DNA from: Lachnoclostridium sp.
GTDB taxonomy: Bacteria > Bacteroidota > Bacteroidia > Bacteroidales > Muribaculaceae
Reading direction: 5' to 3'
Assembly (NCBI GenBank): GCA_023667185.1
Contig: JAMPAP010000002.1
Span: 150,978-214,977 of the forward strand
DNA: 64,000 bases
Shown: piece by piece, positions 6,565 to 38,374 of the stretch
How positions within the stretch are numbered: the first letter of the stretch is position 1
How the letters are laid out: each line of letters starts with the position of its first letter
Translations under genes and position numbers: made by a program
Notes under the pieces: model-generated
What the model saw: the letters and a program-made list of their open reading frames with translations, nothing else
What the model was told of the DNA's origin: nothing
The model's database searches: none

Positions 6565-9500
6565 ATGAAGGACTTTTCATTGATTCTTAACACCGGAATC
6601 CAGTTTTACCAGCTGGACAACGAGGTTACGATTGACCTTAATGAGAGCGTGATGAAGGCATTACGCTACTATGTCTACCAGTTCCGTGACACTATCTACA
6701 TGGATCCCGTGTACTATTTCCCCATGAAAGACAAATTCCTGCGACGTAATGACCTGGTAACTAACGGATATCTTGACCCGAATACCAATGTCATGGCTCC
6801 TGAGGAAGTGATAAACAACCATGTCAACTGGCTTGAGGATGATACGCTACTCTCGGTCAACGGCCTTGATGTGACTATCGGCGATGAACGTCTTTCAGGT
6901 ATCGAACAGATTGAAAATCAGTGGCTCCCCATTCCTTTCTATGAGAAAGACCGCGACGGATCGTTCTCCTATCCGGTCAACTGGTGTCGTATCAAGCTGG
7001 TGCCGGTGAAGGAGAAGAGTACCGCTCACAAGAAGGTCTACAAGGCAGTGATGGCATTTGATACCAACGAAAATCTCCAGTATGCTGATCGCAGCCCCCA
7101 CTTCAATAATGGCCAGCCTTTCAAGGATTATGCCATGTGTGGTATCTCGCAGAAGGATCTCGACAATATGACTGACTCTGACCGCAAGCGCGTCAACTCA
7201 ATGATTGTCCCCCTGCGCGCCTACGAGTTTGTAGATACAAAGAAAAACCCCGAGCTCGACGGTTACCTCCGTACTATCCTCCACAGCAGTCCTGACGGAA
7301 AGCAGGAGGATGTGCGTGACCGCGTGAAATATCTCGCCTATTATACTTACCTGATAACTTACCTGCAGCTGAAGCATATCTTCCCTGACGTAAGATTGTA
7401 TAATGACGTCAATCAGGCTGTTATCAAGACGAATCTTGTGCTCGACGTAGGTAACTCCCGCACATTTGGCCTTATAGCCGAGGATCCGTTGAACGCATCA
7501 TTCTCCAAGGCTTCACCCATAGAGCTGCGTGACCTCTCCACCGGCCAGATTTACGACAAGCCCTTCGATATGCGTCTGTGCTTCCGCCGCGAGCTGTTCG
7601 GGCTCAGCACCAGCGACCGCCAGTTCCGCTGGCCGAGCTATGTGCGCCTCGGCGAAGAAGCTCTCCGCAATATCTACGATGGCGATCAGGATCTCGACAG
7701 TAACGAGGAGTTTGAGACAAACCATTCAAGCCCCAAGCGTTATCTCTGGGATACAGCACCTTACTGCGGCGAGTGGAAATTCGTTTCGGAGAAAGACCGC
7801 TACATCGGCCCGGCCATGAAAGTAAGCATCGAGGGACTTGATGAGCAGTTTGCTACCGATGGATCCTTCGTGGCTGACCCCATGAACTTCGGCGTCAAGA
7901 GCAGCTACTCCCGCTGCTCGCTGATGACCTTCTGCTTCCTGGAGATACTTCTTCAGGTAAGAATGCAGATCAACGGCGTGAAATTCCGTGAGAAAAACGG
8001 TAACGAAAGCCGCAAGCGTCAGATTTCCCGCGTGATACTTACATGCCCTACAGCGATGAGTCGCGAGGAACAGAAGACTCTCCGCAAGTGTATGGAGGAT
8101 GCGACCATCGTGCTCCGCCGCTTCTATAACGATTCGTATAACGAAGTCTATAATCCTGAGAATGATAAAGATAAAGTGGAAATCATCCCCTCGGTGAAAG
8201 ACCTTGCCAAGAATGCCGACAATTATGAAATGCGCCGCAACTGGATATACGACGAGGCTACCTGCTGCCAGATGGTGTATCTCTACTCCGAAATGCGCCG
8301 CTACTTAGGTAATGTCAATGAGTTTTTCGACCTCTACGGTATGCGTCGCAACGGCGAACCGCAGAAGTCGCTCACAGTGGCTTCAATCGACATAGGTGCC
8401 GGCACCACTGACATCATGATCTGCAACTACCGCAATGGAGGTGAGACGATTATACCTACGCCTCTTTTTTGGGAAACATTCCATATCGCCGGCGACGAGC
8501 TCGTGAAACGCGTGATTATCGACGTGCTTATCAACGATCCCCAGGAGAAGTTCCGCGGTGCATCCGGCCTGATTACCGATAAGCTCCGCTCCATAGGCTG
8601 CCCCGACATTCCTAATACCAAGGCTCACTTCTTCGGCGACACTCAGGCTATGGGAGTAAAAGAAAAACGTATGCGCAAGGAGTTTAACGTGCAGGTGCTC
8701 ATCCCTATAGCCAACTATCTTCTCGACCTTCTCCAGAAAAATGAGGAGGATCGCATCATCAAGTTTGACGACATCTTTACCACAACCCGTCCTTCAAAAA
8801 CACTGCTTGACTTCTTCGCCAACCAGATGGGCTTCCGCTTCGAGGAAATGCCTATCAAATATTCGCGCGAGTTTATGAACGACATCGTCAGCAAGGTATT
8901 TGAGCCGTCGATGCGCAAGTGGGCTGCAATATTCTACAGCTACAAGTGCGACATCGTGCTCATGGCCGGCCGCCCCTGCTCGCTCGAGCGCGTCCACAAG
9001 ATGCTGCTTCGCCTCTATTCCGTATCACCCAACCGCCTCATCTCGATGAACGACTACCGTGTAGGCTCATGGTATCCCGGCTCAAGCGACATCGGTCACT
9101 TCGGCGACAAGAAGTCGATGGTGGCTGTAGGTGCCTTGATATCTTATCTGGCTGAGACCGGCAAGCTGTCATATCTCCGCCTGAATACTGAAAACCTGAA
9201 AACCAAGATATTACCTACGAGTGACTTCATCGGCCTGCTCAACTCCAAGACGGGCTCACTCACTCCGCTGCTTACTCCGGAAATACGTCGTGCTCGCATG
9301 GAAATCTCAGGCTTCCCCATCCGCATCGGCACCAAGCAGATCAATATCGGCGGCTATCCTTCACGACTTATGTATGTACTTGACTTCAATGAGGATTTCA
9401 TCCGTCGTAAGGCTATTGAAAATCTTATCAACCAGCTCGGACTACCCATGTCGGCCAAAGAAACCGATATCTCACCTGACTATATTGTCAACGAGATGGA

Positions 9501-9717
9501 TACGCTGAAATTCCGTACCAAGCGCGCCACGCCGCTTACCTTCGCCTTCGAACGCGAGTTTAACACTGACAAGGAGCTCATCAAGATCGAAAGCGTGACT
9601 AACGCCGAGCGTGACGAGATCTCACCCAAAATGTTCAGCCTCAAGCTGCAAAGCTGGGATGAAGATGAAAACAACTGGCTCGATTCCGGTAAATTCATCA
9701 TGCAGATCAGCGAATGA
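6565..9717 (+). CDS. SrfB-like protein: large actin/Hsp70-fold (ASKHA) ATPase
   Basis: Phosphate-1-like VLDVGNSRTFG (about 7438), phosphate-2-like SIDIGAGTTDIM (about 8383) and an adenosine-like VLMAGRPCSL. It is 1050 aa and precedes a large P-loop protein, as in srfB-srfC. The N-terminus (LILNTGIQFYQLD) resembles my memory of SrfB. Confidence 0.6.
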   Translation: MKDFSLILNTGIQFYQLDNEVTIDLNESVMKALRYYVYQFRDTIYMDPVYYFPMKDKFLRRNDLVTNGYLDPNTNVMAPEEVINNHVNWLEDDTLLSVNGLDVTIGDERLSGIEQIENQWLPIPFYEKDRDGSFSYPVNWCRIKLVPVKEKSTAHKKVYKAVMAFDTNENLQYADRSPHFNNGQPFKDYAMCGISQKDLDNMTDSDRKRVNSMIVPLRAYEFVDTKKNPELDGYLRTILHSSPDGKQEDVRDRVKYLAYYTYLITYLQLKHIFPDVRLYNDVNQAVIKTNLVLDVGNSRTFGLIAEDPLNASFSKASPIELRDLSTGQIYDKPFDMRLCFRRELFGLSTSDRQFRWPSYVRLGEEALRNIYDGDQDLDSNEEFETNHSSPKRYLWDTAPYCGEWKFVSEKDRYIGPAMKVSIEGLDEQFATDGSFVADPMNFGVKSSYSRCSLMTFCFLEILLQVRMQINGVKFREKNGNESRKRQISRVILTCPTAMSREEQKTLRKCMEDATIVLRRFYNDSYNEVYNPENDKDKVEIIPSVKDLAKNADNYEMRRNWIYDEATCCQMVYLYSEMRRYLGNVNEFFDLYGMRRNGEPQKSLTVASIDIGAGTTDIMICNYRNGGETIIPTPLFWETFHIAGDELVKRVIIDVLINDPQEKFRGASGLITDKLRSIGCPDIPNTKAHFFGDTQAMGVKEKRMRKEFNVQVLIPIANYLLDLLQKNEEDRIIKFDDIFTTTRPSKTLLDFFANQMGFRFEEMPIKYSREFMNDIVSKVFEPSMRKWAAIFYSYKCDIVLMAGRPCSLERVHKMLLRLYSVSPNRLISMNDYRVGSWYPGSSDIGHFGDKKSMVAVGALISYLAETGKLSYLRLNTENLKTKILPTSDFIGLLNSKTGSLTPLLTPEIRRARMEISGFPIRIGTKQINIGGYPSRLMYVLDFNEDFIRRKAIENLINQLGLPMSAKETDISPDYIVNEMDTLKFRTKRATPLTFAFEREFNTDKELIKIESVTNAERDEISPKMFSLKLQSWDEDENNWLDSGKFIMQISE

Positions 9718-9759
9718 TTTTCAAGTGCACAAATTTACTAATTCTGACTACTTCTTAAA

Positions 9760-12700
9760 ATGGAAAACAAGATAATAGATGCTCAGATGAGCGCTAACGG
9801 AGCAGGTCTCGGCTGGGGACGCTCTTTTCTCAAAGGATCTGACCTGCGCGAGCTTCGCAGCGATCTAATCCGTAACCGTATCGACCTGCGTCGCATCCGC
9901 TATGCTGCCAGTGTCAACCCTGCAGCCGCTATCTTCGGCAAGAGCCAGGTGGGTAAGTCGTATATGGTTGACTGTCTGCTGACAAGCGAGACCAATCCGC
10001 TTACTGTATACGATGCCCAAGGTAATGCCCATGGGTTTATCGAGAAAATCAATCCTACCGGTAATGGTAAGGAGGCCACTTCGCTGATTTCACGCTTCAC
10101 TACCCAGAAGGTGTGGAAAGATGAGCGATTCCCGGTGAAGGCTATGATGCTTTCGCCCGTCGATGTAGTGCTCGTGCTCTGCGACACATATTATAATGAC
10201 GTAATGGGTCACAAAGTGCCTAACGACGAGGCGATAAATGCCGAGATCCAGCGCCTGCGCGAAACTTACGGCAACCGCCCCGCCGTGCAGACCATCATCG
10301 GCGAAGATGACATGATGGAGCTCCGCGAATATTTCACTCTCGGGCTGATGGAACAGCGCCCTGATTTTCAGGAAGCTCTTCTCCGCCTTAACTACTTCGA
10401 GACTCTCTCGGAGTTGATAGACGCTGTCCCCGTCGCTGCCTGGGCTGATGTGTTCTCCTTCCTTTGGAATCGTAATCCTATTATCACCGAGGTGTTTAAC
10501 AAGTTGATCAATACTCTCGAGCGCCTCGACTTCAGCCCCACAGTATATATAAAAATAGCTGCTGTGGACAAGTATCTCGGCACCATCCTCCATGTTGACC
10601 GTATCTATGAGCTATTCGGTATCACCGAGCTTGACGATGAGAAAAATGGCAAGACCATGATCGAGAAGGCTAAAGAACCTCTGATGGTGGCACTTACCGA
10701 GAATGGGAAGGAGGTAGAGAATATCGAGAAGAGTGTGTTCTGCGCCTTGGCCATGGAGGTCGACTTTACCATTGTCAATCCTGATGATGCATCATCGAGC
10801 GAAAAGCTGCTCAAGGAGAAGCCTTTCCTTCATGATCTTGACATCCTCGACTTCCCCGGTGCACGTTCACGCCAGAAAAACCCCGAGGCCGATATCACCA
10901 AGAAGGATGCCTCGCTTATGCTTATCCGCGGTAAGGTGGCATATCTGTTCAACAAGTATTCACAGCAATATCTTATTACCAACCTCCTTTTCTGCCACGA
11001 TGATACTCAGAACGAGGTTAATACGCTGCCTACCCTCCTTAAGAGCTGGGTAGAGAAAACCGTCGGTAAGACTCCCTCGGAGCGTGAAGTTTTCCTCCGC
11101 ACGGCCGAGGTGTCGCCCCTCTTCGTCATCGGCACAAAGTTTAATATCGAGCTCAAGCGCCGCGACGTCGACTCCAAGGGTAGCGCCGAGCAGCGCGAGC
11201 AGGAGAAGCGTAACCGCTGGATCAAGCGTTTCAGCATCCTGAGCAGTGTGATTTCGGCTTCGATCAAGAGCCCGTGGGAGCTCGAGTGGACCCCCGGCAA
11301 GGCGTTTAAGAATTTCTATATGCTGCGCTCGTTTGAATACTCTTGCCTCGATGGCCTTTATGAAGGCTATCAAGAGAAGGATGACAACGGCGACTGGGTG
11401 CTTTCGCGTAACGCCGATGGTACGCTCCGCGGTGAGCAGCGCGTCAGCGATGACTATAAGGACTTCTTCGCCGGACTGAAATCCACATTCCTTCAGAATG
11501 AATATGTGACCGAGCACTTCGAGGACGCCTCGAAGTCATGGGATGAGGCTGTTGCTCCCGGCAAGGATGGCTCGGCTTGGATTATCGAGAATCTTACCCG
11601 CTCGGGCCGCAACATGAAGGCTGCCCGCGAGCAGACCTTCTCACGCCTGTCGGACAGCGCCATGACCAAGCTGTGCTCAGCCTTGAAAAAGCATTTCCAT
11701 GATGATAACTCTGACTCCGAATTGCGCCGCGCCCTCGAAAGCGCCGGCCGTATCGAGCTGCTGTTTGATGCTCTATTCGGCAAGGACAAATATTTCTTCT
11801 CTGATTTCATCAACGCCTTGCTCGTGCATGAGGATGAGATCAATGACACTATCCTTTGCACAGTAAATTCCATCAAGGTGCTCGACGATACTGATATGTC
11901 CGTGCTCTTCGCTATCCGTAACCGCGCCAAGATCGTCGCTCCTTACACTGAGGATGAACATGGCAACCGCACACCCGTTGACCTTGAAGAGAACATGAAG
12001 GAAAACCGCCGCCGTATGCGTGAGACGTATCACTTCTCTACTGATGAGGAGCTTGACGAGTTCCTTGCCGGCATGAAGCTCACCATGGAGGATATTATCA
12101 ATCCGCCTATGGTGCGTAACCTTGCGCGTATCATCGTCGATGCCGTCGAGAAATATTGGATGGATACATATCTGTCGCTTGAAAACTTCAGCGAGTTTGT
12201 TGAGCGTGGTATGTCAGAGAAGGGCATCGAGACCCTCCTCAGCAATATGCGCGTGCTCTACAAAGATAAACTGCATATGTCAGAGCGCCTGACTGCCCGT
12301 CTTGCTCCCTACGTTACAGCCCGCGAGAACCTCGACGATATGGCCGAAATGCTCGCCGACATATGCGCCGAGATGCTCAACAAGTTTATCAACACCATAG
12401 GTACATCCTATTTTGAGGAAGAACTTTGGAAAGACGTTCACGCCACCGTGGATCATAATGGCTTTGATATCAAGGTGGATGCTGCTGAGTATGACTCCGA
12501 TATTGACTTCGATGGCGAGAAGACCCGCGAAGGCCTCAACGACGTGTTTGACGTGTTTGATAATGTTGATGTAATCCTCAATCAAGTGCCCGTGGATACC
12601 GAGAAACTTTCATATTTCTCCAATTATCATGCTTTCCGCGAGTGGACTGACATGATGAAGATTGCCTTCCTTGCCACTTGCGGTATCCCCAAATATGACG

Positions 12701-12813
12701 TGGTGATGAATAATGAGCTCCGCAACGTGCTTGTAAAATACATAGTCGATAACGATAATCTCAAGCCCATGCTTAAGCCTGAATATGGCCTGAGCGAGCT
12801 TGCTACTCTTTGA
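9760..12813 (+). CDS. SrfC-like large P-loop (dynamin-like?) GTPase
   Basis: Walker A FGKSQVGKSYMV (about 9934), DxxG-type LDILDFPGARS and a possible G4, GTKFN. It is 1017 aa with a long helical C-terminal part. Confidence 0.55.
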   Translation: MENKIIDAQMSANGAGLGWGRSFLKGSDLRELRSDLIRNRIDLRRIRYAASVNPAAAIFGKSQVGKSYMVDCLLTSETNPLTVYDAQGNAHGFIEKINPTGNGKEATSLISRFTTQKVWKDERFPVKAMMLSPVDVVLVLCDTYYNDVMGHKVPNDEAINAEIQRLRETYGNRPAVQTIIGEDDMMELREYFTLGLMEQRPDFQEALLRLNYFETLSELIDAVPVAAWADVFSFLWNRNPIITEVFNKLINTLERLDFSPTVYIKIAAVDKYLGTILHVDRIYELFGITELDDEKNGKTMIEKAKEPLMVALTENGKEVENIEKSVFCALAMEVDFTIVNPDDASSSEKLLKEKPFLHDLDILDFPGARSRQKNPEADITKKDASLMLIRGKVAYLFNKYSQQYLITNLLFCHDDTQNEVNTLPTLLKSWVEKTVGKTPSEREVFLRTAEVSPLFVIGTKFNIELKRRDVDSKGSAEQREQEKRNRWIKRFSILSSVISASIKSPWELEWTPGKAFKNFYMLRSFEYSCLDGLYEGYQEKDDNGDWVLSRNADGTLRGEQRVSDDYKDFFAGLKSTFLQNEYVTEHFEDASKSWDEAVAPGKDGSAWIIENLTRSGRNMKAAREQTFSRLSDSAMTKLCSALKKHFHDDNSDSELRRALESAGRIELLFDALFGKDKYFFSDFINALLVHEDEINDTILCTVNSIKVLDDTDMSVLFAIRNRAKIVAPYTEDEHGNRTPVDLEENMKENRRRMRETYHFSTDEELDEFLAGMKLTMEDIINPPMVRNLARIIVDAVEKYWMDTYLSLENFSEFVERGMSEKGIETLLSNMRVLYKDKLHMSERLTARLAPYVTARENLDDMAEMLADICAEMLNKFINTIGTSYFEEELWKDVHATVDHNGFDIKVDAAEYDSDIDFDGEKTREGLNDVFDVFDNVDVILNQVPVDTEKLSYFSNYHAFREWTDMMKIAFLATCGIPKYDVVMNNELRNVLVKYIVDNDNLKPMLKPEYGLSELATL

Positions 12814-12840
12814 GATTAACCTAAAGCATTATCCATCAAT

Positions 12841-15438
12841 ATGCAACGAATATTAGGACAAAGTGATTATAACTCTTTCACCCACCATTTCAATGCCAAC
12901 GAACCGGTGGTGAAAAATCCGCGCATCAGCTCTTTTATGGCTACGCGTCTGCCCGGCCTTGACGATGCTTCACGTAAGGCACTCGCCAATCCGTATTTCA
13001 GCGGTATGCCGGGTAAGGAGCAGGTGATGTGGCAGACTGACGCCTTCGAAAGCGAGCCCGTAAGACTTAGTGACCTTTCCGGTGCTGAGCGCGAGAAATA
13101 TGAGCGTATTCTCGACAAGACTATGCGCTCGATAGCCCGCTCCGTGGAGCAGACTGACGATGAAATGAAGCGTGTGATGAAAGAGGCTGTCACATACCAT
13201 TCGCCCGATACCGTATACTGTGCTGATGATCGCGTGGTGATCACCGAGTGGGGTATGCATCCCAAGTCGCGTAGCGATTTCAGCAGCCTGCCACTGGGCG
13301 TGCAGCTCGATGAAACCGGTGAGCCCACCGGCAATTCTTCAGCTTCTGAGACTCCTGAGACTCCTGGAAATTCTGGAAATTCCGGGAATAATGAGAATTA
13401 TGGGAATACAGAGAACAATGAGAATACCGGGAACAATGAACCGGAATCTCCCACACCTCCCACACCTCCCACTCCACCCACACCTCCTGTTCCACCCGTT
13501 CCACCCACAACTCCACCTACACCCCCCGTTACTCCCACACCCCCGGTGAAGCCCTCCGGCGATTCCGGCAACTCCGGCGGCAAGAATAAGAAGGGGTGCC
13601 TCAAGAAGCTGTTGAAGTGGCTGCTCATAGCTCTTGGTGTGCTGTTGCTGCTGTGGTTGCTGTCAAGTCTGCTGAAGTCGTGTGACGGTTCCTCAACCCC
13701 CGGCTCGGAGGATATTGTGGCACTACCACCAGAAATTGACCCCGAGGAGGATATAGTGGAGAGTCCTGACTCGATGACTCGTATCGTGGCCAATCGCCTG
13801 ATCTTGCTTATCTCGGATGGTGGCACGGTCAACGAGTTTGTCGATGCGTTTTATGCCAAGTACCCTGACAAGAAGAAATACACCTTCGCTAATCCTGATA
13901 CGTTGATCCCGCGCGTAGTGCTTGTGCTGCCCGCTGATGAGCGTGAGGGGATGATAGAGCGGTTGCCGTCAGAGTTCCCTGACTGGGATCTCGTGGTGCT
14001 TCCCGAAACTCTTTTCGGCGGCTCGATGATACCTGACGATCCGGCATTCGCTGACCCTGAGAAGAGATGGTATTTCGACATGACCTCGACATTTGACGCC
14101 TGGGACACCACCCGTGGCGACAAGAAAATCAAGATAGCTATCATCGACGACGGCTTTGACCTGAATCATCCCGAAATCAAGGGTAAGGTGGTGGATCAAT
14201 ACAATGCCGTCACCCACACCCGTGATGTCTTCCCGCAGAAGGATGGCCACGGTATGCACGTAGCAGGCACGGCTGCCGGTATCGCCGGTAACCACGAGGG
14301 TATCTCCGGTATCGCCCCTGACTGCGAACTTATGCTCATCCAGGTAGGCGACCGTAATGGGGTGATGTCAACCTCGGCCGTGATTGATGCCGTGCTTTAT
14401 GCCATCAGCAATGGCGCCGATGTGGTAAATATGTCGCTCGGTATGGAATTTAACCCTATGCTGCAGCTCGCTCCCCCTGAAATGCAGGAGGAAATCATCC
14501 GCAACCAGTTTCTCGAGGAGGAAGGGATGTGGAACAAGATTTTCGAAATGGCCGATAAGAAAAACGTAACGTTTGTGCTTGCCGGTGGTAACCAGAACCT
14601 TATTATCGGCCTTGACCCGATGCAGCGCTCGTCACGCACCATCAAGGTGTCGGCCGTAACGCCCACCAAGGAGAAGGCTGACTTCTCCAACTATGGTAAA
14701 TACTCCACCCTCTCGGCTCCCGGTGTAAATATCTACAACGCCTTCCCCGGCGGCAAGTATATCTCGTATCAGGGTACGTCGATGGCCTCGCCCATCGTGG
14801 CCGGTGGTGTGGGATTGCTGAAGAGTGTTGAGCCGTCGCTCACAACGGCACAGATTGCCAACATCCTGCGCGAAACGGGTATAGAATCGCCCAGCGACGT
14901 CGGCCCGATAGTCAACTTCGCCCGCGCACTTGACCTCCTTAAAGAGAAGGGACCTGATGCCGGAACCGGTACCGGGGACACTGACTGCGACAAGATTCGC
15001 GACCGCTATCTGGAGCTCACTGAGGAGATAGAGCGCATCCGACGCGAGCATCCCGAGTGTGTCGATGCTATTGACACTCTCGAGATCCCGGTAGGTGTGG
15101 CGCTCACTGACTTGCGTGGTCTTTACCAGAGTACCACCAAGATTGTTAATGTGTCCGGCGAGGATGTTGTGATCTTCCTGTCGTTTGATGGAACGCCCAC
15201 CGGCGGTGTGATGCTCGTAGAGCCTTCGGGCGCTAAGTTTACTGCCTCAACATCAGTGTCAGTCTCCGGCGACAAGATCCTTATTCACCAGAATGGACCG
15301 GCCGAAGGCACGAGTGGCGGGTATCTGCCTTACGACTTTACCCTCATTCCTGACCGCGACCGTAAGGCGCAGGGTACAGCTGTAAATCAATCCGATCCTC
15401 GCAACAGGGTTCGCTTCCAGCTTATCCGCATAAAGTAA
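12841..15438 (+). CDS. Membrane-anchored subtilisin-like (S8) serine protease. Domain order: cytoplasmic N-domain, N/G/E- and Pro/Thr-rich linker, single TM, periplasmic S8 domain, C-terminal beta domain
   Basis: Catalytic triad motifs IAIIDDGFD (about 14146), DGHGMHVAGTAAG (about 14248) and GTSMASPIVAGG (about 14779). The TM segment WLLIALGVLLLLWLLSSLL is preceded by KNKKGCLKKLLK (positive-inside rule). Confidence 0.85.
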   Translation: MQRILGQSDYNSFTHHFNANEPVVKNPRISSFMATRLPGLDDASRKALANPYFSGMPGKEQVMWQTDAFESEPVRLSDLSGAEREKYERILDKTMRSIARSVEQTDDEMKRVMKEAVTYHSPDTVYCADDRVVITEWGMHPKSRSDFSSLPLGVQLDETGEPTGNSSASETPETPGNSGNSGNNENYGNTENNENTGNNEPESPTPPTPPTPPTPPVPPVPPTTPPTPPVTPTPPVKPSGDSGNSGGKNKKGCLKKLLKWLLIALGVLLLLWLLSSLLKSCDGSSTPGSEDIVALPPEIDPEEDIVESPDSMTRIVANRLILLISDGGTVNEFVDAFYAKYPDKKKYTFANPDTLIPRVVLVLPADEREGMIERLPSEFPDWDLVVLPETLFGGSMIPDDPAFADPEKRWYFDMTSTFDAWDTTRGDKKIKIAIIDDGFDLNHPEIKGKVVDQYNAVTHTRDVFPQKDGHGMHVAGTAAGIAGNHEGISGIAPDCELMLIQVGDRNGVMSTSAVIDAVLYAISNGADVVNMSLGMEFNPMLQLAPPEMQEEIIRNQFLEEEGMWNKIFEMADKKNVTFVLAGGNQNLIIGLDPMQRSSRTIKVSAVTPTKEKADFSNYGKYSTLSAPGVNIYNAFPGGKYISYQGTSMASPIVAGGVGLLKSVEPSLTTAQIANILRETGIESPSDVGPIVNFARALDLLKEKGPDAGTGTGDTDCDKIRDRYLELTEEIERIRREHPECVDAIDTLEIPVGVALTDLRGLYQSTTKIVNVSGEDVVIFLSFDGTPTGGVMLVEPSGAKFTASTSVSVSGDKILIHQNGPAEGTSGGYLPYDFTLIPDRDRKAQGTAVNQSDPRNRVRFQLIRIK
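13331..13580 (+). repeat. Low-complexity coding repeats (GNS/NEN units, then PTPPTPPTPPVPP units)
   Basis: Reiterated short units gagactcct, ggaaattct and cccacacct seen directly. The overlapping alternate-frame ORFs are artefacts of this tract. Confidence 0.85.
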
Positions 15439-15482
15439 TCACCACATATATTATATATAGTAACTGAAAATTTAAACCAAAT

Positions 15483-16361: not shown

Positions 16362-16412
16362 AAATAAAATATTATTGATTATAATTGAAAATACAAATTA
16401 AAAATATAAGCT

Positions 16413-28325: not shown

Positions 28326-28331
28326 ATCGAT

Positions 28332-29456: not shown

Positions 29457-29494
29457 TGAATATAACCTAATCCAAGAAAAATATAATAAGTGCA

Positions 29495-30949: not shown

Positions 30950-30969
30950 TAAAAAATTTAATACCAGAT

Positions 30970-31899: not shown

Positions 31900-31920
31900 A
31901 AAGAAATAAATTTACATTAT

Positions 31921-34422
31921 ATGGCATCACTTAAAATAATATACGGTATCGACCTCGGTACCACCAACTCGGCAATCACCCGATTCGAAAATGGTAAGGC
32001 CGTAGTAAAGAAAAATTCGCTCCAGAGTGACACCACACCATCTGTTGTGGCATATCGCGCCCAGGGTAAGGCCCCTTCGGTAGGCTCACGTGCAAAAACT
32101 CAGCTTGAGAAGGATCACGTGATGGCCTTCCGCAAGCCGGGCTATAAGTCAAACGTATTCCATGAGTTCAAGCGCGTGATGGGCACTGACCATAAGTTTT
32201 TCTCTTCAGCGCTTAATGCCGAGCTGACTCCTGAGGATCTTTCGGCCGAAGTGCTAAAAGAGCTGCGTAAGAATATCCTTGATGATGAGGTCTCATCGGC
32301 CGTAATCACCGTCCCTGCGATGTTTAATAACACTCAGAAGGATGCAACCAAGCGAGCTGCAAAACTCGCCGGATTTGACCATGTAGAGCTTATTCAGGAA
32401 CCGGTGGCCGCATCTGTGGCTTATGGTTTGTCCTCAAAGATGAAGAATGCTTACTGGGTGGTGTTTGACTTCGGTGGCGGTACATTTGACGCTGCTCTGA
32501 TGCGTATCACTGACGGTATCATGCAGGCTATAGACACTGCCGGTAACAACAAGCTCGGCGGCAAGGATATCGACAACGCTATAATCGAGCAGATTATGAT
32601 CCCATATTTCCGCTCCAACTATACAATTGAAAACATCCTGACCAACAATCGCAAGGCCTTTGCCGAGGTGTGGAAGGCAAAGGCTGAGGAGGCGAAGATT
32701 AACCTTTCGTTCAACTCATCGTATGAGCTCGAGACTGACCTCGGCGAGGATTACGGTACTGATGATCTCGGCGATGAGCTTGCCCTCTCGCTCACCATCA
32801 CTCAGGATGATCTGGAGCGTGTGGCTGCGCCCATCTATCAGAAAGCCATCGATATAACCAAGGAACTGCTTGCCCGCAACGGTATCAACGGCAAGGATCT
32901 CGGCGCTCTTATCCTCGTGGGCGGTCCTACACATTCGCCCATTGTGCGTCGTATGCTCCGCGAGCAGGTGACTCCGAATGTCGACACTTCTATTGACCCG
33001 ATGACCTGTGTGGCTGCCGGGGCTGCCATCTATGGCTCTACAATAGATGTCCCTGAGGAGATTGCTGACACCAAGCGTGACCGCTCCAAGGTGCAGCTCG
33101 CCGTGACTTATCAGAGTACCTCAGTCGAGACCGAGGAGTGGGTGTCAGTATCGCTGCTCCGTGACAAGTGTGACAACTACACCGAGCCTACGGTGAGAGT
33201 GGAATTTGCCCGCACTGACGGCCTGTTTACCTCGCCCGCCTCAGAAGTGGATGCAGCCGGCGACGTTGTATCGCTGATGCTCAAGCCGGATGCTACAAAT
33301 ACGTTTGATATCCGCTGCTACGACAGCCGCGGCACACGCCTCGAGTGTGAACCATCGCAGATCTCCATCATTCAGGGTGTGGCCGGATTAGGCGATGCTG
33401 TCATCCCTATGGCTCTCGGTATCGGTGCTACCAATAAGGATAATGTCGAAGTATTCATCCCCATTCAGGGTCTCGAGAAGAGCCGCAAGCTCCCCGCTTC
33501 GGGAAGTACTCGCTCTAACGGACTTCGCACACAGAAGGATATTCGCCCAGGTGTGGAGTCTGACACCGTCAGAATGTCTCTTTATCAGACCGAGGATGTG
33601 GGCGAAAACGTCAGAGTGCTCTATTGCCAGCGCATCTACGATGTACTGGTCACCGGCGAGGATGTACCCGTACTCGTGCCTGCCGAGAGTGTGATAAATA
33701 TCAACCTCCATGCCGAGCGCTCGGGCACAATCGATAAGTTTGAGATCGAGATTCCGAGCATCAACTTCACTCTCGACCTTACCGAGCGCATGAGCAAGAG
33801 CACCACATCAGCTCTCTCCGAAAGCTTCCTTGTGCATGAGATATATGATGCCAAGACCCGCGCCCGCCGCCTTGATAATGCCGCCTTGATCAACCGCATT
33901 GACCTTCTTGAGCAGCGCCTGAAGAATGCTGCCGGCGACCGCGATGCCCTCGATGGTATCTTTGCCGAGCTCCAGTCAATCGGTCGCGAGATCGATCATC
34001 AGATGTCGCTCGGCGAATGGGATCGCGAGGCTGCCCGACTTAAGTCAATGTTTGCCGAACTCTCAAACGATAACGTCAAGTATGGCAACGCTGATACCAC
34101 CGCTCTAATCGAGCAGATCAAGAAGGAGATGGACAAGGTGCTCGAAAGCCGTAACGTCCAGCTTGCCAAGGATCTTTACAGCCAGATGTGGAATCTCGAC
34201 TTCCGCATCGCTGAGGTGGAATTCTATATCGCATGGATACAGCAATGGAACAGCGAGTTTGCCCGCAAGAACTGGACTAATCCCTCGCGTGCCCGCCAGC
34301 TCGTTGACAATGGTCTGTCCATCATCCGCCAGGGCTCGCCTACGGCCGATGCTCTCCGCCCCATTGCCTTTGAGCTCAACGATATGCTACCCGAACACCA
34401 GAAAACCGATACTCTTCACTGA
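31921..34422 (+). CDS. Non-canonical Hsp70 (DnaK-family) ATPase, 833 aa
   Basis: IYGIDLGTTNSAI, VITVPAMFNNTQKDATKRAAKLAGF, VFDFGGGTFDAAL and LVGGPTHSPIVRRML. SBD-beta-like: IPMALGIGATN...VFIPI. An extra segment of about 115 aa lies between the NBD and SBD, and the helical C-terminus is long. Confidence 0.9.
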   Translation: MASLKIIYGIDLGTTNSAITRFENGKAVVKKNSLQSDTTPSVVAYRAQGKAPSVGSRAKTQLEKDHVMAFRKPGYKSNVFHEFKRVMGTDHKFFSSALNAELTPEDLSAEVLKELRKNILDDEVSSAVITVPAMFNNTQKDATKRAAKLAGFDHVELIQEPVAASVAYGLSSKMKNAYWVVFDFGGGTFDAALMRITDGIMQAIDTAGNNKLGGKDIDNAIIEQIMIPYFRSNYTIENILTNNRKAFAEVWKAKAEEAKINLSFNSSYELETDLGEDYGTDDLGDELALSLTITQDDLERVAAPIYQKAIDITKELLARNGINGKDLGALILVGGPTHSPIVRRMLREQVTPNVDTSIDPMTCVAAGAAIYGSTIDVPEEIADTKRDRSKVQLAVTYQSTSVETEEWVSVSLLRDKCDNYTEPTVRVEFARTDGLFTSPASEVDAAGDVVSLMLKPDATNTFDIRCYDSRGTRLECEPSQISIIQGVAGLGDAVIPMALGIGATNKDNVEVFIPIQGLEKSRKLPASGSTRSNGLRTQKDIRPGVESDTVRMSLYQTEDVGENVRVLYCQRIYDVLVTGEDVPVLVPAESVININLHAERSGTIDKFEIEIPSINFTLDLTERMSKSTTSALSESFLVHEIYDAKTRARRLDNAALINRIDLLEQRLKNAAGDRDALDGIFAELQSIGREIDHQMSLGEWDREAARLKSMFAELSNDNVKYGNADTTALIEQIKKEMDKVLESRNVQLAKDLYSQMWNLDFRIAEVEFYIAWIQQWNSEFARKNWTNPSRARQLVDNGLSIIRQGSPTADALRPIAFELNDMLPEHQKTDTLH

Positions 34423-36179
34423 TGATTTACAAAGCTAAAGATACAATACTTGACCGCTACACTGTCCTTTTCCCGATAAAGGAAGGAGCCTACGCCGAGT
34501 CGTATCGCGTGAAAGATGCTGCCGGCAAGCGGTATTTCTTCAAGCTGATTGACCGGTCCAGGCTTCAGCCCGAGCAGATCGATGACTATGGGCGTGTGCG
34601 CGAAATAGAGATCGTAAAGGATTTGGCTCACCCATGCCTCCCGGCTATGATCGAGTCGGGCGAGGTGACTATCGGCGGCAAGGAGTACGAATACCTTGTC
34701 AACAAATATGTGCCCTCCGAGACCCTTGCTGACCGCCTTCAGCGCGCGCAGACCCTCAAAATGTATGATATCAAGGCCATAGCTCGCGGAGTGCTCTCGG
34801 CTCTGACAGCGCTGCATGAGAATGACAATCCGGTGATCCACAATGAGGTCACGGCTCTGAATGTGCTGATGGATCTGTCGGTCGACGATCCGTCGGCTGT
34901 ATGCCTTATCGACTTTGGCTATGCCCGCCATACTGACGAGGCTCATGGCCAGTCGATCGAGGGGCTCAACTGGTTTTACCTCGCTCCGGAACGGTTTGAC
35001 GGCGCTTCAACGGTGCAGAGCGACCTCTATTCAGTAGGAGCTCTGCTATATCAGCTGACCTTCGGGCTGCTCCCCTGGTTCTGCGACCTCTCGACCATAG
35101 CTCCCGAGAAGCGTAAGCAGTATATCCTGCGCCAGAAGCACACCGCATTGCTGATGCCCGTAGTGGATAAGTTTGAGCTCGACGATCGTTTCCTCAACAT
35201 CCTCCGCAAAGCTCTTGCTGCTGATGTCGACGAGCGTTTTCAGTCGGCCCGGGAGTTTCTTGACGCCATCGAGGGAAAAGGCGAGGTGATAGCGCCGTCG
35301 CAGAATCCTGCTACGGCTGATGATCGCCGCGATGCTTTCTCAGCTTCGCGTCAGCGCTCCGGCAACGGGTTTGAGGATGTGGCAGGTATGACAGAGCTTA
35401 AGGAAATGCTCCGCAAGCGGGTGCTCAACATCCTGCGCGATACCGAGAAGGCAAAGCGTTACAAGCTTCAGATACCCAACGGTATACTCTTCTACGGCCC
35501 TCCCGGATGCGGCAAGTCGTTTCTTGCTGAGAAGTTTGCCGAGGAAGCCGGCTACAATTTCAAGCTCGTGAAGGCATCTGACCTGGCGTCTATCTATGTT
35601 CACGGCTCGCAGGAAAAGATAGGCCAGCTCTTTGACGAGGCACGCAAGAATGCGCCTACGATCCTCTGCTTCGACGAGTTTGACGCTCTGGTGCCGGCTC
35701 GCGGTACGCAGGGCGCCGAGCACCAGTCGGGCGAGGTCAACGAGTTTCTTACCCAGCTCAACAACTGCGGCGAGACCGGCGTCTTCGTCATCGCGTCGAC
35801 CAATCGTCCCGACATGATCGACCAGGCCGTGCTGCGTCGCGGCCGTATTGACCAGGTGATTTTCATCCCGGTGCCTGATGCCGAGAGTCGTGCCGCGATG
35901 TTTGAGCTCCATCTCAAGGGTCGCCCCTTCGACACCTCGATCGACTATTCAGCACTCGCTGCCTTGACTGAGAATTACGTGGCAAGTGACATAGCCTACG
36001 TGGTCAACGAGGCCGCAGCCCGCGCAGCGTTTGCTGACGAGAAGATCACTTCCGAGCATCTCGAAGAGGTAATCTCCGAGTGCCGCCCTTCGCTCAACGA
36101 GGGCGCGCTGCGCAACTACGACAAGCTACGCGAAAAAATGGAAGGCATCGTGGAGTCACGGCGCCGCATAGGTTTTTAA
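34422..36179 (+). CDS. Fusion of a Ser/Thr-kinase-like domain (atypical catalytic loop) and a classical-clade AAA+ ATPase
   Basis: Kinase-like motifs: YFFKLI (beta-3 Lys), IHNEVTALNVLMD in place of HRDLKPxN (34839..), DFGYA (34911..) and YLAPERF. AAA+ motifs: Walker A GPPGCGKS (about 35496), Walker B ILCFDEFD, sensor-1 IASTN and the Arg-finger region DQAVLRRGRID. Confidence 0.85.
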   Translation: MIYKAKDTILDRYTVLFPIKEGAYAESYRVKDAAGKRYFFKLIDRSRLQPEQIDDYGRVREIEIVKDLAHPCLPAMIESGEVTIGGKEYEYLVNKYVPSETLADRLQRAQTLKMYDIKAIARGVLSALTALHENDNPVIHNEVTALNVLMDLSVDDPSAVCLIDFGYARHTDEAHGQSIEGLNWFYLAPERFDGASTVQSDLYSVGALLYQLTFGLLPWFCDLSTIAPEKRKQYILRQKHTALLMPVVDKFELDDRFLNILRKALAADVDERFQSAREFLDAIEGKGEVIAPSQNPATADDRRDAFSASRQRSGNGFEDVAGMTELKEMLRKRVLNILRDTEKAKRYKLQIPNGILFYGPPGCGKSFLAEKFAEEAGYNFKLVKASDLASIYVHGSQEKIGQLFDEARKNAPTILCFDEFDALVPARGTQGAEHQSGEVNEFLTQLNNCGETGVFVIASTNRPDMIDQAVLRRGRIDQVIFIPVPDAESRAAMFELHLKGRPFDTSIDYSALAALTENYVASDIAYVVNEAAARAAFADEKITSEHLEEVISECRPSLNEGALRNYDKLREKMEGIVESRRRIGF

Positions 36180-36200
36180 ACTATTCACAAAGTGTAAATC

Positions 36201-36692
36201 ATGATAAAAGATAATTTGAATCTCGCTACAGCCTTCGCATTTATGGCATGCGACGGCGATATCTCGCCCGATGAGGTGAAGTTGATAAAGCAGATGAATG
36301 CTGACGGCATCATCCCGTGTGACGATGTCGACGATAAGCTCGAGCAGCTACTCGGGCAGCTCAACGCCCGCGGTCACGGCTTTATGAAAGACTATTTCCA
36401 GGCCGTCACTGACGCTGACCTTGACGCCGACGCGGCTCTCGCGCTACTCAAGATTGCCGTCGCCACCATCTATGCCGACGAAATCGTGGAATACTCCGAG
36501 GTGAAGTTTTTCCGAGCCGTGCGCTCGCATATCCTCTCAATGACCGATGAGCAGATCCTCGAGGCTATCCCCGAGGTTGAGGACTTTTGGCTGGAGTCTG
36601 ACGTCAAGTCGGCCGCTCCGGGCTACCTCGACCAGCAGTATATGGAAGCTGTCGAGCTACCGCAGTTTGACATCGCATCATTGAAGAAGTAA
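36201..36692 (+). CDS. TerB-like (tellurite-resistance TerB / DjlA N-domain type) protein
   Basis: Two copies of the TerB-type motif: FMACDGDISPDEVKLIKQM and IYADEIVEYSEVKFFRAV. All-helical, 163 aa. Confidence 0.65.
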   Translation: MIKDNLNLATAFAFMACDGDISPDEVKLIKQMNADGIIPCDDVDDKLEQLLGQLNARGHGFMKDYFQAVTDADLDADAALALLKIAVATIYADEIVEYSEVKFFRAVRSHILSMTDEQILEAIPEVEDFWLESDVKSAAPGYLDQQYMEAVELPQFDIASLKK

Positions 36693-37744
36693 TGGATAAG
36701 GTATTTATAAGCTACCGCCGCGATACGGGGCAGGATATCGCCCGCGGCCTCAACGACCGTCTCACCCAGCGCGGCATCAAGACCTTCTTTGACCGTGAGA
36801 CGCTCCATAACGGCAAGTTTAACCAGCAACTGCTCGGCGCCATCCGCGAGTGCCGCGACTTCATACTTGTGTTCTCCAAGGGCGCCCTTGACCGCTGCGT
36901 CAACCCTGACGACTGGGTGCGCACCGAGATCGAGTGTGCTCTGAAGCTGCATAAAAACATTGTGATAGTCTACACCATCCAGCCGCTCGAATTTCCGGCC
37001 AATCTCCCCGCGTCGCTCAACGAGCTGAAGTTTTACCAGGGCGTGTATCTCAACCATGAGTATTACAACGAGAGCATTGACCGCATCATCAACCACCTCG
37101 AGACCGGGCGTCAGCTCCATCGCAGCCGCGTCTTGACATGGGGATGCGTGGCTCTGGCCATTATCGTGACTGCCGCGTGGATGTACTTCGGCCATGAAAA
37201 GAACGCTGACTCTCAGCCCGCTGCCGTAGAGGATAGCGTGGCAGTGGTTGAGGAAGAGCAGATTGTAGTGGAGCAGCCTTCAAAGAAGAAGTCTACCCCC
37301 GTGCAGCAAGCCCCCTCAAAGCCCGTCGAAAAGTCTACCCCGGCCGTGGAGGAAAAGTCTCAGCCCGCAGCTACCCAGCCTGTAACCACCCAGCCTGTCG
37401 CCACTCAACCCGTAGCAACTCAGCCGCAGACACCCCGCAAGAGCGACGTGGAGCAGCTTGCCGAACGAGCTGCCTCGGGTGATGCCGCCGCAGCCTGTCA
37501 GATGGGTCTGCGGTTCCTTAACGGCGATGGCGTGTCAAAAAATTTCAAGACCGCCTTTGCATATTTCAACCAGTCGGCCTCGGCCGGTAACATCGATGGT
37601 ATGTACTGGCTCGGATACTGCTATCGCATGGGGCGCGGCACTTCCAAGGATTTAAATAAAGCCAAGCAATTGTGGAAACGCGCTGCCTCGGCGGGAAATG
37701 CCCGTGCCGCCCACGACCTCGAAGAAATCGAATCATTAATGTAA
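36692..37744 (+). CDS. TIR domain - TM - Pro/Thr/Gln-rich linker - Sel1 (SLR) repeat protein
   Basis: TIR: VFISYRRDTGQDIARGLNDRLTQRGIKTFFDRETLHNGKF...FILVFSKGAL...DWVRTEIECAL, with the conserved Glu present. TM: VLTWGCVALAIIVTAAWMYFG. Sel1: AACQMGLRFLNGDGVSKNFKTAFAYFNQSASAGNIDGMYWLGYCYRMGRGTSKDLNKAKQLWKRAASAGN. Confidence 0.85.
   Translation: MDKVFISYRRDTGQDIARGLNDRLTQRGIKTFFDRETLHNGKFNQQLLGAIRECRDFILVFSKGALDRCVNPDDWVRTEIECALKLHKNIVIVYTIQPLEFPANLPASLNELKFYQGVYLNHEYYNESIDRIINHLETGRQLHRSRVLTWGCVALAIIVTAAWMYFGHEKNADSQPAAVEDSVAVVEEEQIVVEQPSKKKSTPVQQAPSKPVEKSTPAVEEKSQPAATQPVTTQPVATQPVATQPQTPRKSDVEQLAERAASGDAAAACQMGLRFLNGDGVSKNFKTAFAYFNQSASAGNIDGMYWLGYCYRMGRGTSKDLNKAKQLWKRAASAGNARAAHDLEEIESLM
37370..37429 (+). 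repeat. Four tandem 15-nt coding units (ATQPV TTQPV ATQPV ATQPQ) in the TIR-Sel1 linker
   Basis: The four units gctacccagcctgta, accacccagcctgtc, gccactcaacccgta and gcaactcagccgcag were read directly. Confidence 0.85.
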
Positions 37745-37762
37745 TAAATAATCTGTATTGTT

Positions 37763-38374
37763 ATGAAAAAAACTATCATTTTATCACTGGTCACCATTAT
37801 GACCTCGTTGCTTTGTCCGGCAGAAATGTCAGCCCAAGGTTTTTGGAAAAAGGTTCAGAAAGCCGGTAAAGACATCGAGAAGACACTGAATGGAGTGTCT
37901 GAGACCTTGAATTCTGTGTCAGACAACAGTACCACCACCGCCGGAACATCCAAGACCTACACTCCCGGCAGCGACGGCCGCCTCAGCACCTCGAGCGAAG
38001 CCGATGGAATAAAACTGAAAGTCAAGAGCTGTAATGTCGACGATGAAAACAACGCCGTCATAGTCTTCACCCTCACCAACAACCGCCCCGATGACTACAG
38101 AGGATGGTTCAGTAACAATAGCAGCGAGGCATATGATGACGAAGGTAACTTATATCAGGGAAGTGATATCATAAGTTATGCTCCGGGTAATGCGGTAGTA
38201 TATGATTATAATAGTGAGTTGAAGATACCGGCCGGCCTTACTACGAAATGGAAAATGCGTGTCCGCAGAGTTGATCCTGCCGCAACGATGCTTAAAAAGG
38301 TACGCGTTCGTCTTACAAATAATCAAAGCTTCTACATCTACAACCTCCCCATCACCCGCGAAGGCGACGAATAA
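37763..38374 (+). CDS. Secreted beta-rich protein, last co-directional gene of the cluster; no recognised family
   Basis: Signal peptide IILSLVTIMTSLLCPAEMSAQ. Membership of the cluster rests only on the 18-nt spacing from the previous gene. Confidence 0.6.
   Translation: MKKTIILSLVTIMTSLLCPAEMSAQGFWKKVQKAGKDIEKTLNGVSETLNSVSDNSTTTAGTSKTYTPGSDGRLSTSSEADGIKLKVKSCNVDDENNAVIVFTLTNNRPDDYRGWFSNNSSEAYDDEGNLYQGSDIISYAPGNAVVYDYNSELKIPAGLTTKWKMRVRRVDPAATMLKKVRVRLTNNQSFYIYNLPITREGDE

Follow-up and report, generated by a model that had tools for sequence, protein, structure and literature searches.

A block of 20 genes that occupies positions 6565-38374 of the 64-kb stretch of bacterial DNA analysed here (the window, from contig JAMPAP010000002.1) is best explained as a composite whose three modules are separable but transcribed together. 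In module A (g1-g12), a 12-gene core unites the proteins SrfB and SrfC with membrane and periplasmic partners, module B (g13-g18) joins a GTPase gene to an Hsp70 unit and module C (g19-g20) pairs a TIR-Sel1 protein with a small secreted protein or lipoprotein. We read the cluster as a modular, envelope-spanning, NTPase-driven conflict or defence system with exchangeable effectors, and assign this reading a probability of about 0.55. It is favoured because the NTPase core is constant, the exposed parts are hypervariable, the effector slot is exchangeable, defence islands adjoin some of the related loci and the distribution is patchy. A previous sequence-only reading of the same DNA had put the block forward as one candidate multi-component system. 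Conservation as a unit held for g1-g12, which were kept together with an unchanged order across about 20 distinct loci, and failed for the rest: g13-g18 lay beside the core in 4 of the about 17 loci that extended past g12 (about 13 of the 17 lacked them), and no composite relative carried g19-g20. The present analysis also added SrfA-N domains in g3 and g11, the loss of the catalytic Asp from the kinase-like domain of g17 and a complete, divergent substrate-binding region in g16.

Conservation and modular structure

The open reading frame (ORF) map of the window placed all 20 genes on the + strand. The intergenic gaps from g1 to g20 were 42, 27, 44, 51, 18, 8, 6, 3, -4, 1, -8, 6, 38, 20, 21, -1, 21, -1 and 18 nucleotides (nt), and there were four start/stop overlaps (ATGA at 24007, ATGGCTAA at 26436, TGATG at 34420 and TAATG at 36690). 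The junction sequences agreed with the earlier description of the layout, in which no gap exceeded 51 nt, and the operon-like arrangement proposed there is supported. To delimit conserved units, g6, the Hsp70 gene g16, g11 and the TIR protein g19 were used as seeds, the neighbourhoods of their homologs were read, annotated plasmids were searched and all 20 proteins were compared by tblastn with every fetched locus. About 25 related loci, numbered with the prefix L, were compared in this way.

The core was found in Muribaculaceae, Bacteroides, Prevotella, Butyricimonas, Bacteroidales metagenome-assembled genomes (MAGs), human-gut metagenomes and plasmid pSP2_1 of Runella sp. SP2. The order of g1, g2, g3, g11 and g12 was identical in every core locus covering them, and g4, g5, g6 and g8 were present in most. 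Two human-gut contigs (L043 and L044) had g4-g10 replaced by Sel1/TPR-type proteins (TPR, tetratricopeptide repeat), L042 carried three tandem g5 GTPase genes (105-4244), L039 had two g6 genes and in Runella (L032, 35903-39208) g11 and g12 were fused into one ORF of 1102 amino acids (aa). L042 also had a tandem array of two or more g12-type genes at 11389-15884, seen as two ORFs and three tblastn segments. Compared with the closest relative, identity was 84, 80 and 74% for g1, g2 and g3, 53, 62 and 38% for g4, g5 and g6, 38, 33 and 26% for g8, g9 and g10, and 56 and 68% for g11 and g12. For g13 to g18, the corresponding values were 53, 45, 54, 82, 86 and 60%. In this comparison, the envelope-exposed cassette evolves much faster than the NTPases. 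The latter are six (SrfB, SrfC, g5, g13, Hsp70 and the AAA+ ATPase of g17) and none showed a signal peptide or transmembrane (TM) helix in the simple hydropathy scan from which all topologies given here derive; their number and the predicted topologies were as previously proposed.

The same-strand genes that followed g12 varied among loci. They comprised a SIR2 gene in L005, genes for Pkinase, VWA and PP2C in L003 and L004 only, which together have the composition of a TerY-P triad, patatin and a TIR-beta-propeller protein in L039, a Pkinase in L040 and module B in four loci, while L002 and L011 had nothing in this position. TerY-P triads combine a TerY-like vWA protein, a PP2C phosphatase and a Ser/Thr kinase, and TerY-P-like modules act as stand-alone defence systems (PMC11090510). 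On the 93-kb Runella plasmid (L032), the core came directly after a full BREX-1 system (BrxB, BrxC, PglX, PglZ and BrxL) and an AbiEii toxin gene. The Hsp70 unit, without the core, lay tail-to-tail with brxL/pglZ in Muribaculaceae (L025/L026, 10001-21037) and convergent with BREX-1 on plasmid pHALHY02 of Haliscomenobacter hydrossis (L048, 8357-20283), where SIR2 and WD40 genes were located upstream. BREX adjacency was thus observed in three unrelated lineages, once for the core and twice for the Hsp70 unit, and the repeated arrangement of the latter in two bacterial classes suggests co-mobilisation or a functional link. In Prevotellaceae, the stand-alone Hsp70 unit lay beside WYL, RtcB and helix-turn-helix genes.

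A related genome pointed to gain or loss of the system. In a Duncaniella MAG (L010, 4723-14734), the syntenic site carried genes for a metallo-beta-lactamase (MBL) fold protein, a Big_5 protein and a TPR-histidine kinase, followed by a g6-like gene of 994 aa, two small genes, cinA and tsaD. The site looks like a remnant or a minimal version of the cluster and, because it keeps just the g6-like gene and two small genes, we conclude that the system is dispensable.

The limits of modules B and C were drawn from the same comparison. Besides the window, L001/L030, L029 and L031 were the only loci with module B 3' of g12, and the last of these lacked the kinase-AAA+ gene. In L031, NADAR and ART-PolyVal (ADP-ribosyltransferase-related) genes followed directly after the composite cluster on the - strand (13534-14851). 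The genes g14-g17 or g14-g18 occurred without any Srf gene in three places, namely Muribaculaceae, Prevotellaceae and pHALHY02. Orthologs of g13 were restricted to L029, L030 and L031. Four divergent loci combine modules A and B, and in these the two are linked by g13, which is paralogous to the core GTPase. As for module C, tblastn found g19 and g20 in none of the composite relatives, and L029 and L030 had unrelated membrane proteins in the slot after g18. In L047, a TIR-Sel1 protein 44% identical to g19 was followed by a g20 homolog (E 1e-30), the pair being alone between the housekeeping genes greA and trkH/mfd, and a stand-alone TIR-Sel1 ortholog was found on many contigs. Since the pair stands alone in L047 and is absent from the composite relatives, we regard module C as an independent unit. 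As neighbourhood conservation splits A, B and C, the block corresponds to three modules and not to a single 20-gene system.

The SrfB-SrfC core and its variable cassette

The first gene, g1 (6565-9717), encodes SrfB, a protein of 1050 aa predicted to be cytoplasmic, which matched PF07520 over profile positions 12-991 of 992 (E 4e-160, 535 bits against a cutoff of 27.1) and was 60-84% identical to the SrfB proteins of related loci. An alignment showed three motifs, D294xGNSxT, D609IGGGTTD and G802xP, to be invariant across Bacteroidia, Cytophagia and Gammaproteobacteria; they probably correspond to the phosphate-1, phosphate-2 and adenosine motifs of actin/Hsp70-fold (ASKHA) ATPases. Because the hhalign comparison of SrfB with Hsp70 was marginal (E 9e-4, probability 23%, adenosine-motif region only), the ASKHA assignment relies mainly on these three motifs. 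The second gene, g2 (9760-12813), begins 42 nt 3' of srfB and encodes SrfC, a P-loop GTPase of 1017 aa with GKS at residues 60-62 and TKKD at 380 (PF10139, SrfC/Virul_Fac, E 2e-99). The SrfC gene adjoined the SrfB gene in all the related loci read. Sequence searches of PDB chains with SrfB, SrfC and g5 returned only noise, and no SrfB was found in the phage collection.

Two further core proteins carry a domain related to the N-terminus of SrfA. The protein encoded by g3 (12841-15438) was predicted to comprise a cytoplasmic SrfA-N-like domain (residues 1 to about 145), a low-complexity linker, a TM helix (260-278) and a periplasmic S8 protease domain (428-680), the latter matching Peptidase_S8 with E 1e-47 and an intact D436/H470/S647 triad. 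In hhalign, the N-terminal region of g3 aligned with proteobacterial SrfA at a probability of 96.7% (E 3e-10). The product of g11 (25217-26443; 408 aa) combines an SrfA-N-like domain (residues 1 to about 130) with CarboxypepD_reg/MG4-type beta-sandwiches and has no TM helix; its N-terminal region aligned with that of g3 (probability 97.2%, E 4e-11) and g11 aligned with SrfA (probability 91%, E 1e-6). The full-length NCBIfam model SrfA_fam scored 17-21 bits, far below its cutoff of 150. Because g3-N is homologous to SrfA-N, g3 follows the SrfA plan of N-domain, linker, TM helix and periplasmic domain, with S8 replacing the SrfA C-domain, and the homology of g3 and g11 suggests that a full but rearranged SrfA/B/C set is present. 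The gene order is srfB-srfC-(srfA-N::S8), inside a conserved block of 12 genes, and not that of a three-gene srfA-srfB-srfC operon. The last core gene, g12 (26436-28325), was found in all cores and encodes 629 aa with an N-terminal TM helix followed by CarboxypepD_reg repeats, of beta-sandwich type, and a C-terminal vWA domain. In our own reading, the DxTxS motif of this domain resembles a metal ion-dependent adhesion site (MIDAS).

Between these conserved genes lies a seven-gene cassette (g4-g10). The first, g4 (15483-16361), encodes a 292-aa protein with four TM helices that matched no known family; its position was kept at 24-53% identity. It is followed by g5 (16413-17954), a GTPase of 513 aa with N-terminal TPR-like hairpins, a GVPRSGKS G1 motif, a VEMAGE Walker B and TKSD. 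The sequence-only reading had described two paralogous TKxD GTPases, and blastp identified g5 and g13 as true paralogs (27% identity, E 7e-40) that share GxxxxGKS and TKxD. A Glu in Walker B (VEMAGE) is a feature of the g5-type proteins. Against the Pfam family DO-GTPase2, g5 gave E 0.0027, and 4 of the 10 members of its family matched with a best E of 0.0014, all below the gathering score. The N-terminal extension of g5 (window 16413-17100, residues 60-130) also contains YfiO/BamD-like TPR hairpins of the form Y(L/I)xx(Y/F)PxG, which were likewise seen in the unrelated terminal membrane protein of L029 (14799-15791).

The signature gene of the cassette is g6 (17973-21086; 1037 aa). Its conserved N-domain (1-262) is followed by a hypervariable region, and by prediction the cytoplasmic part spans about 737 residues, after which a TM helix (738-756) leads to a C-domain in the periplasm. 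It had no Pfam match. An exact-sequence lookup of g6 returned nothing, although a 100% identical protein is deposited at NCBI. A word search retrieved 47 g6 homologs. The N-domain is the sole well-conserved part of g6, and with clusters formed at 50% identity HMMER collected 464 representatives of its family, in which the domain was always N-terminal. The AlphaFold2 (AF2) model of this domain had a predicted local distance difference test score (pLDDT) of 92, and Foldseek found no significant PDB neighbour for it; the top matches were longin domains and TagF (E of about 1e-2, TM-scores of 0.2-0.36). Taken as a lead only, this resemblance in the model hints that g6-N could be a GTPase-regulatory platform beside g5. 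Single distant proteins of the g6-N family (about 28% identity over 360 aa) were also present in Capnocytophaga spp. (L016-L024, including C. sputigena NCTC11653), where the genes lay between rpsF-rpsR-rplI and NfeD-like and AsmA-family genes (L024, 8663-16060) with no Srf genes within 10 kb.

The remaining genes of the cassette encode exposed proteins. The bitopic protein g7 (21095-21985; 296 aa) is a shortened paralog of g6 that retains its TM and periplasmic portion (g6 929-1036 against g7 188-295, 56% identity, E 7e-35 by blastp), and g8 (21992-22798) is a lipoprotein of 268 aa with a signal peptide ending in LILTAC, kept in most cores. Both g9 (22802-24010) and g10 (24007-25215) encode secreted coiled-coil proteins of 402 aa; g9 was poorly conserved (25-33% identity where detectable) and g10 was the least conserved gene, with 26% identity in the closest relative. 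We considered g9 and g10 as a paralog pair and rejected it, since blastp detected no relation between them.

The Hsp70 unit, the TIR-Sel1 pair and the flanks

Module B opens with g13 (28332-29456), a GTPase of 374 aa with GVAGTGKS and TKCD that occurs in composite loci only and bridges modules A and B. The five genes that follow delimit a membrane-tethered Hsp70 unit, which we put forward as a second candidate system. Here the earlier description of a J-like/GrpE-like/Hsp70 set fared unevenly: the Hsp70 was firmly identified, the GrpE-like protein received weak support and the J-like assignment found no profile match. The Hsp70, g16 (31921-34422; 833 aa), matched PF00012 with E 1e-68. Its nucleotide-binding domain (NBD) is canonical, whereas the beta-rich region for substrate binding (391-620) is divergent, and the helical lid (634-821) is long. 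The best Foldseek matches of its AF2 model (pLDDT 83.6) were full-length DnaK/BiP (E 1e-38, 650-810 aligned columns). By its model, g16 is a complete but divergent Hsp70 and not an NBD-only protein; it is not DnaK itself, as it scored 256 bits against the DnaK equivalog cutoff of 823. More than 120 protein clusters, nearly all full length, shared at least 52% identity with g16. They are common in gut Bacteroidales, and g16 is far more widespread than g6 (more than 120 against 47 by the same search).

The proteins encoded upstream of the Hsp70 are predicted to be membrane-bound. The 484-aa product of g14 (29495-30949) is tail-anchored (TM 465-483), and homologs in stand-alone units were in some cases fused to Sel1. 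Its conserved N-terminal segment looks J-like and lacks the HPD motif, and no DnaJ match was obtained in Pfam or PDB profile searches. The product of g15 (30970-31899; 309 aa) has a signal/anchor, a coiled coil, a TM helix (125-143) and a conserved, weakly GrpE-like C-domain. It gave E 0.005 against the NCBIfam GrpE model, and its C-domain aligned in hhalign with residues 126-193 of a manually entered Escherichia coli GrpE sequence (E 0.003, probability 10%). Both weak signals were collinear with the GrpE C-terminal domain. PDB profile searches with g15, including one with a C-terminal profile, returned no GrpE, and those of g14 and g15 were swamped by coiled-coil and helical matches.

Downstream of the Hsp70, g17 (34422-36179; 585 aa) fuses a kinase-like domain to a CDC48/FtsH/IetA-like AAA+ ATPase, as identified by Pfam, NCBIfam and PADLOC. 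In an alignment with a manually entered PknB reference, the catalytic loop read HNE instead of HRD (HNE(V/I)(T/S)xxN in g17 and its orthologs, YNH in one ortholog), the catalytic Asp and the catalytic-loop Lys were lost, and DFG and APE were kept. As the loss of the catalytic Asp departs from the HRDxKxxN loop of active Hanks-type Ser/Thr kinases, this domain is probably a pseudokinase. The AAA+ domain retained intact Walker A and B motifs. The last gene of the unit, g18 (36201-36692; 163 aa), had been called TerB. In the window the match to PF05099 was sub-threshold (E 0.0024, 18.6 bits against a cutoff of 24.4), while the Haliscomenobacter ortholog (38% identity, E 2e-27) reached 26.4 bits, passed the Pfam threshold and is annotated as TerB.

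In module C, g19 (36692-37744; 350 aa) was predicted to consist of a TIR domain (residues 1 to about 135), a TM helix (147-165), a low-complexity linker and Sel1 repeats (TIR_2 E 2e-12, Sel1 E 3e-17). Its partner g20 (37763-38374) is a secreted protein or lipoprotein of 203 aa. Profile searches thus bore out the TIR-TM-Sel1 assignment, together with those proposed for SrfB, SrfC, S8, vWA, Hsp70 and kinase-like-AAA+.

The 264-nt gap 5' of g1 contains TATCTTTG (6414-6421, + strand), found by a pattern search for the Bacteroidetes -7 promoter consensus, TAnnTTTG; it is a consensus match only. Sigma-70 promoter scans are uninformative for Bacteroidota. The 371-nt gap 3' of the cluster has one weak terminator-like hairpin. 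Upstream of the block lie genes for a pseudouridine synthase, an MBL-fold protein, a Big_5 protein and a TPR-histidine kinase, and downstream of it genes for a secreted protein of 524 aa, Dxs and an amylase. In agreement with the sequence-only reading, no integrase, phage or conjugation genes were present in the flanks within the window. The 524-aa protein, which has a signal peptide, and two small membrane ORFs occupy 38746-40945 on the same strand; the former matched no family, and homologs of these ORFs were absent from every related locus fetched. Neither tRNA genes nor Rfam families at gathering threshold were detected in the whole 64 kb.

Three upstream genes were 75, 64 and 48% identical to their Duncaniella MAG counterparts, with the order kept. 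Given the gene content and this synteny, the host is a Duncaniella-like relative within Muribaculaceae. NCBI proteins 100% identical to those of the window are labelled 'MAG: Lachnoclostridium sp.' (a Firmicute), and several related MAGs (L007-L009) are titled 'uncultured Staphylococcus sp.'. Both labels probably reflect mislabelled bins.

Interpretation and comparison with known systems

In a conflict system of this kind, the variable periplasmic parts would detect a disturbance of the envelope, most plausibly phage attack, and the signal would cross the membrane to the SrfA-N platforms. In a 2026 preprint, an AlphaFold3 model presents SrfA as a platform that binds SrfB and then SrfC. By analogy, the SrfA-N domains of g3 and g11 may dock the SrfB ATPase and the SrfC GTPase. 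The partner of g11 is taken to be g12, with its TM, beta-sandwich and vWA parts. NTP-driven switching or assembly of SrfB, SrfC and the GTPase would set the threshold, and the output would combine periplasmic proteolysis with the attached effector cassette. The effector would be the TIR domain here, presumably directed at nicotinamide adenine dinucleotide (NAD), and SIR2, patatin or a kinase/PP2C/vWA triad elsewhere.

Several points weigh against this interpretation. The signature is circumstantial. The analysis shows gene content, homologies, predicted topologies, modularity and genomic associations, and from these we infer a defence role, a sensing step and a sequence of events; the proposed docking is based on the AlphaFold3 model of the preprint. 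The flanks in the window are housekeeping genes and not a defence island, no PADLOC model matched SrfB, SrfC, g5 or g6, and the effector-like genes found downstream could be independent neighbours instead of components of the system. The sample was small (about 25 loci) and unscored against the genomic background. Distant g6-N members stand alone beside ribosomal-protein genes in Capnocytophaga, and the only published functional claim for SrfABC is the toxicity of the Xenorhabdus proteins to insect and human cells (PMC6950479).

Some of these points favour the main rival, a non-defence envelope machine or stress response (membrane repair, surface-protein processing or outer-membrane tethering) whose defence neighbours would be coincidental. 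Such a machine would account for a cluster in which most components are membrane or periplasmic proteins and in which TerB, Hsp70 and AAA+ are classic stress-related families. It would also fit the housekeeping flanks, the ribosomal, NfeD and AsmA neighbours of the Capnocytophaga genes and the ABC transporter of the plasmid operons of Klebsiella and Cereibacter. Against it stand the patchy distribution, with a remnant at the equivalent locus of a related genome, and periplasmic parts that diverge extremely fast beside a slowly evolving NTPase core. The recurrence of NAD-directed and lipase effector domains downstream and the BREX adjacency in three unrelated lineages also argue against it, and we consider it unlikely, although more likely than the other alternatives.

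The published cytotoxicity raises instead a toxin system directed at the host or at competitors, in which the proteins or a processed product would be delivered into eukaryotic or bacterial targets. It would suit a gut-dwelling organism, and secreted virulence factors often contain S8 proteases and vWA domains. Yet no signal peptide was found in SrfB, SrfC or the GTPases, which are predicted to be cytoplasmic, no secretion system is encoded in or beside the cluster, the anchored bitopic architecture is unlike that of released toxins and the accessory genes are typical of self-directed abortive-infection effectors, all of which leaves this option with very little credence. Similarly, one integrated 20-gene trans-envelope machine with TIR and/or S8 protease as its obligatory output would explain the tight spacing and the four start/stop overlaps across the block, including the g18/g19 junction, as well as the paralogy of g13 with the core g5 and the joint presence of A and B in L029, L030 and L031. 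The cores that extend past g12 without g13-g18, the separate g14-g18 units and the absence of g19 and g20 from every composite relative, together with their isolated occurrence in L047, largely refute it, and we hold it to be highly improbable.

To our knowledge, the annotation of SrfB and SrfC as 'virulence factors' has stood for more than 20 years without a mechanism. The defence reading of the present cluster makes SrfABC a testable envelope-immunity hypothesis, founded on a 12-gene Bacteroidota elaboration with abortive-infection effector domains 3' and BREX adjacent on one plasmid. We tentatively extend it to SrfABC-family clusters in general, including those of Salmonella and Klebsiella plasmids that carry the 'virulence factor' label; such clusters might be widespread, unrecognised envelope-spanning immune sensors. 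SrfA-N would couple periplasmic phage detection (by vWA, protease or hypervariable domains) to SrfB/SrfC switching, with exchangeable suicide or interference effectors (TIR, SIR2, patatin, TerY-P) as output, and the Hsp70/pseudokinase-AAA+/TerB unit would be a second new defence module partnering BREX. This extension is a speculative one, which we would not yet favour. The second candidate is delimited as tail-anchored g14, GrpE-like g15, Hsp70, pseudokinase-AAA+ and TerB, and members of two bacterial classes have it beside BREX. Both candidates are available in cultured strains, the core in Runella sp. SP2 (Cytophagales) and the Hsp70 unit in Haliscomenobacter hydrossis DSM 1100.

PADLOC detected no complete system in the cluster, as had been anticipated, and no description of the 12-gene core, the Hsp70/pseudokinase-AAA+/TerB unit or the TIR-Sel1 pair was found in the literature or among the PADLOC models. 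The resemblance to Ter-linked and NTP-dependent conflict systems suspected from the sequence received support from the comparison with individual systems. DO-GTPases carry a Glu in Walker B, often occur as two paralogs and are adjacent to a GAP1 protein, and the Hsp70-GrpE-DnaJ theme of DO-GTPase/GAP1 systems was described in Actinobacteria and Firmicutes, not in Bacteroidota (Kaur et al., eLife 2020, PMC7159879). The cluster shares with them paralogous TRAFAC-type GTPases, the Walker B Glu (g5), a large conserved partner directly downstream (g6), many membrane-linked parts, an association with Hsp70 and a weakly GrpE-like protein, and a constant core with variable effectors, and its working resembles that of the NTP-dependent ternary and GTPase-centred conflict systems of the same authors. 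It differs in that the DO-GTPase matches of g5 are sub-threshold, SrfB, SrfC, SrfA-N and S8 are foreign to those systems, and the defining GAP1-N, GAP1-M and GAP1-C domains were not detected by Pfam in g6 or its neighbours. With the DnaK-DnaJ-GrpE set, the cluster has in common an Hsp70 with NBD, beta substrate-binding domain and lid (g16), but no J-domain protein with HPD.

TerB proteins belong to the validated defence systems Shango, Bunzi and Dionysus, and membrane surveillance has been proposed for them (bioRxiv 10.1101/2025.09.30.679545). This idea fits the present cluster, which has a TerB-like g18, and a TerY-P triad follows the core in L003. In contrast, the window contains neither PP2C nor a TerY-type triad, and the partners of g18 are Hsp70 and a pseudokinase-AAA+ rather than those of Shango, Bunzi and Dionysus. 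The AAA+ of g17 matched IetA models (E 3e-32) and the S8 domain of g3 a PADLOC subtilase model; unlike in IetAS, the AAA+ is fused to a pseudokinase, the two genes are 19 kb apart in different modules and the IetS match was marginal (E 0.003). The kinase-like domain of g17 also matched the PD-T4-6 and MADS Mad6 kinases (E 1e-34), but has no catalytic Asp. Regarding Thoeris and other TIR defence, TIR_2 of g19 weakly matched ThsB, ThcB4 and SAVED-TIR models, whereas g19 has a membrane anchor and periplasmic Sel1 repeats and forms an independent two-gene unit with a secreted protein of 203 aa; no ThsA-like gene (SIR2/SLOG or Macro effector) was found in the cluster or its flanks, nor any other effector activated by a signal. 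The likeness to IetAS, PD-T4-6, Thoeris and the TerY-P triad is one of shared domains in a different architecture.

The closest relatives are the SrfABC operons of Salmonella, Xenorhabdus and Klebsiella plasmids. Proteins named SrfB or SrfC in papers on Rickettsia, Bacillus surfactin, planarians and other subjects are unrelated namesakes. SrfB/SrfC were present on 114 Klebsiella plasmid records in PLSDB. The plasmid operons of Klebsiella and Cereibacter have the order [tellurite-resistance-annotated gene or trypsin-like protease]-SrfA-SrfB-SrfC-hypothetical-vWA-ABC transporter, the tellurite-resistance annotation (without a Pfam match) being that of Klebsiella and the protease that of Cereibacter. 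On an IncFIB/HI1B plasmid of Klebsiella quasipneumoniae (L033, 4239-18936), srfABC was flanked by glycine-zipper and 'tellurite resistance domain'-annotated genes. The cluster and these operons share adjacent full-length SrfB and SrfC, an SrfA-N domain that precedes a TM helix and a periplasmic domain and, in the operons of Klebsiella and Cereibacter (two of the three inspected from Proteobacteria), a vWA protein accompanied by a tellurite-resistance-annotated gene or a serine protease, indicating that these associations appear outside Bacteroidota too. The cluster departs from them in its B-C-A' instead of A-B-C order, the replacement of the SrfA C-domain by S8, the duplication of SrfA-N, the seven-gene variable cassette with an extra GTPase, the lack of an ABC transporter and the addition of modules B and C. 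Altogether, module A is a Bacteroidota elaboration of SrfABC, a member of the SrfB and SrfC family rather than a canonical three-gene srfABC operon.

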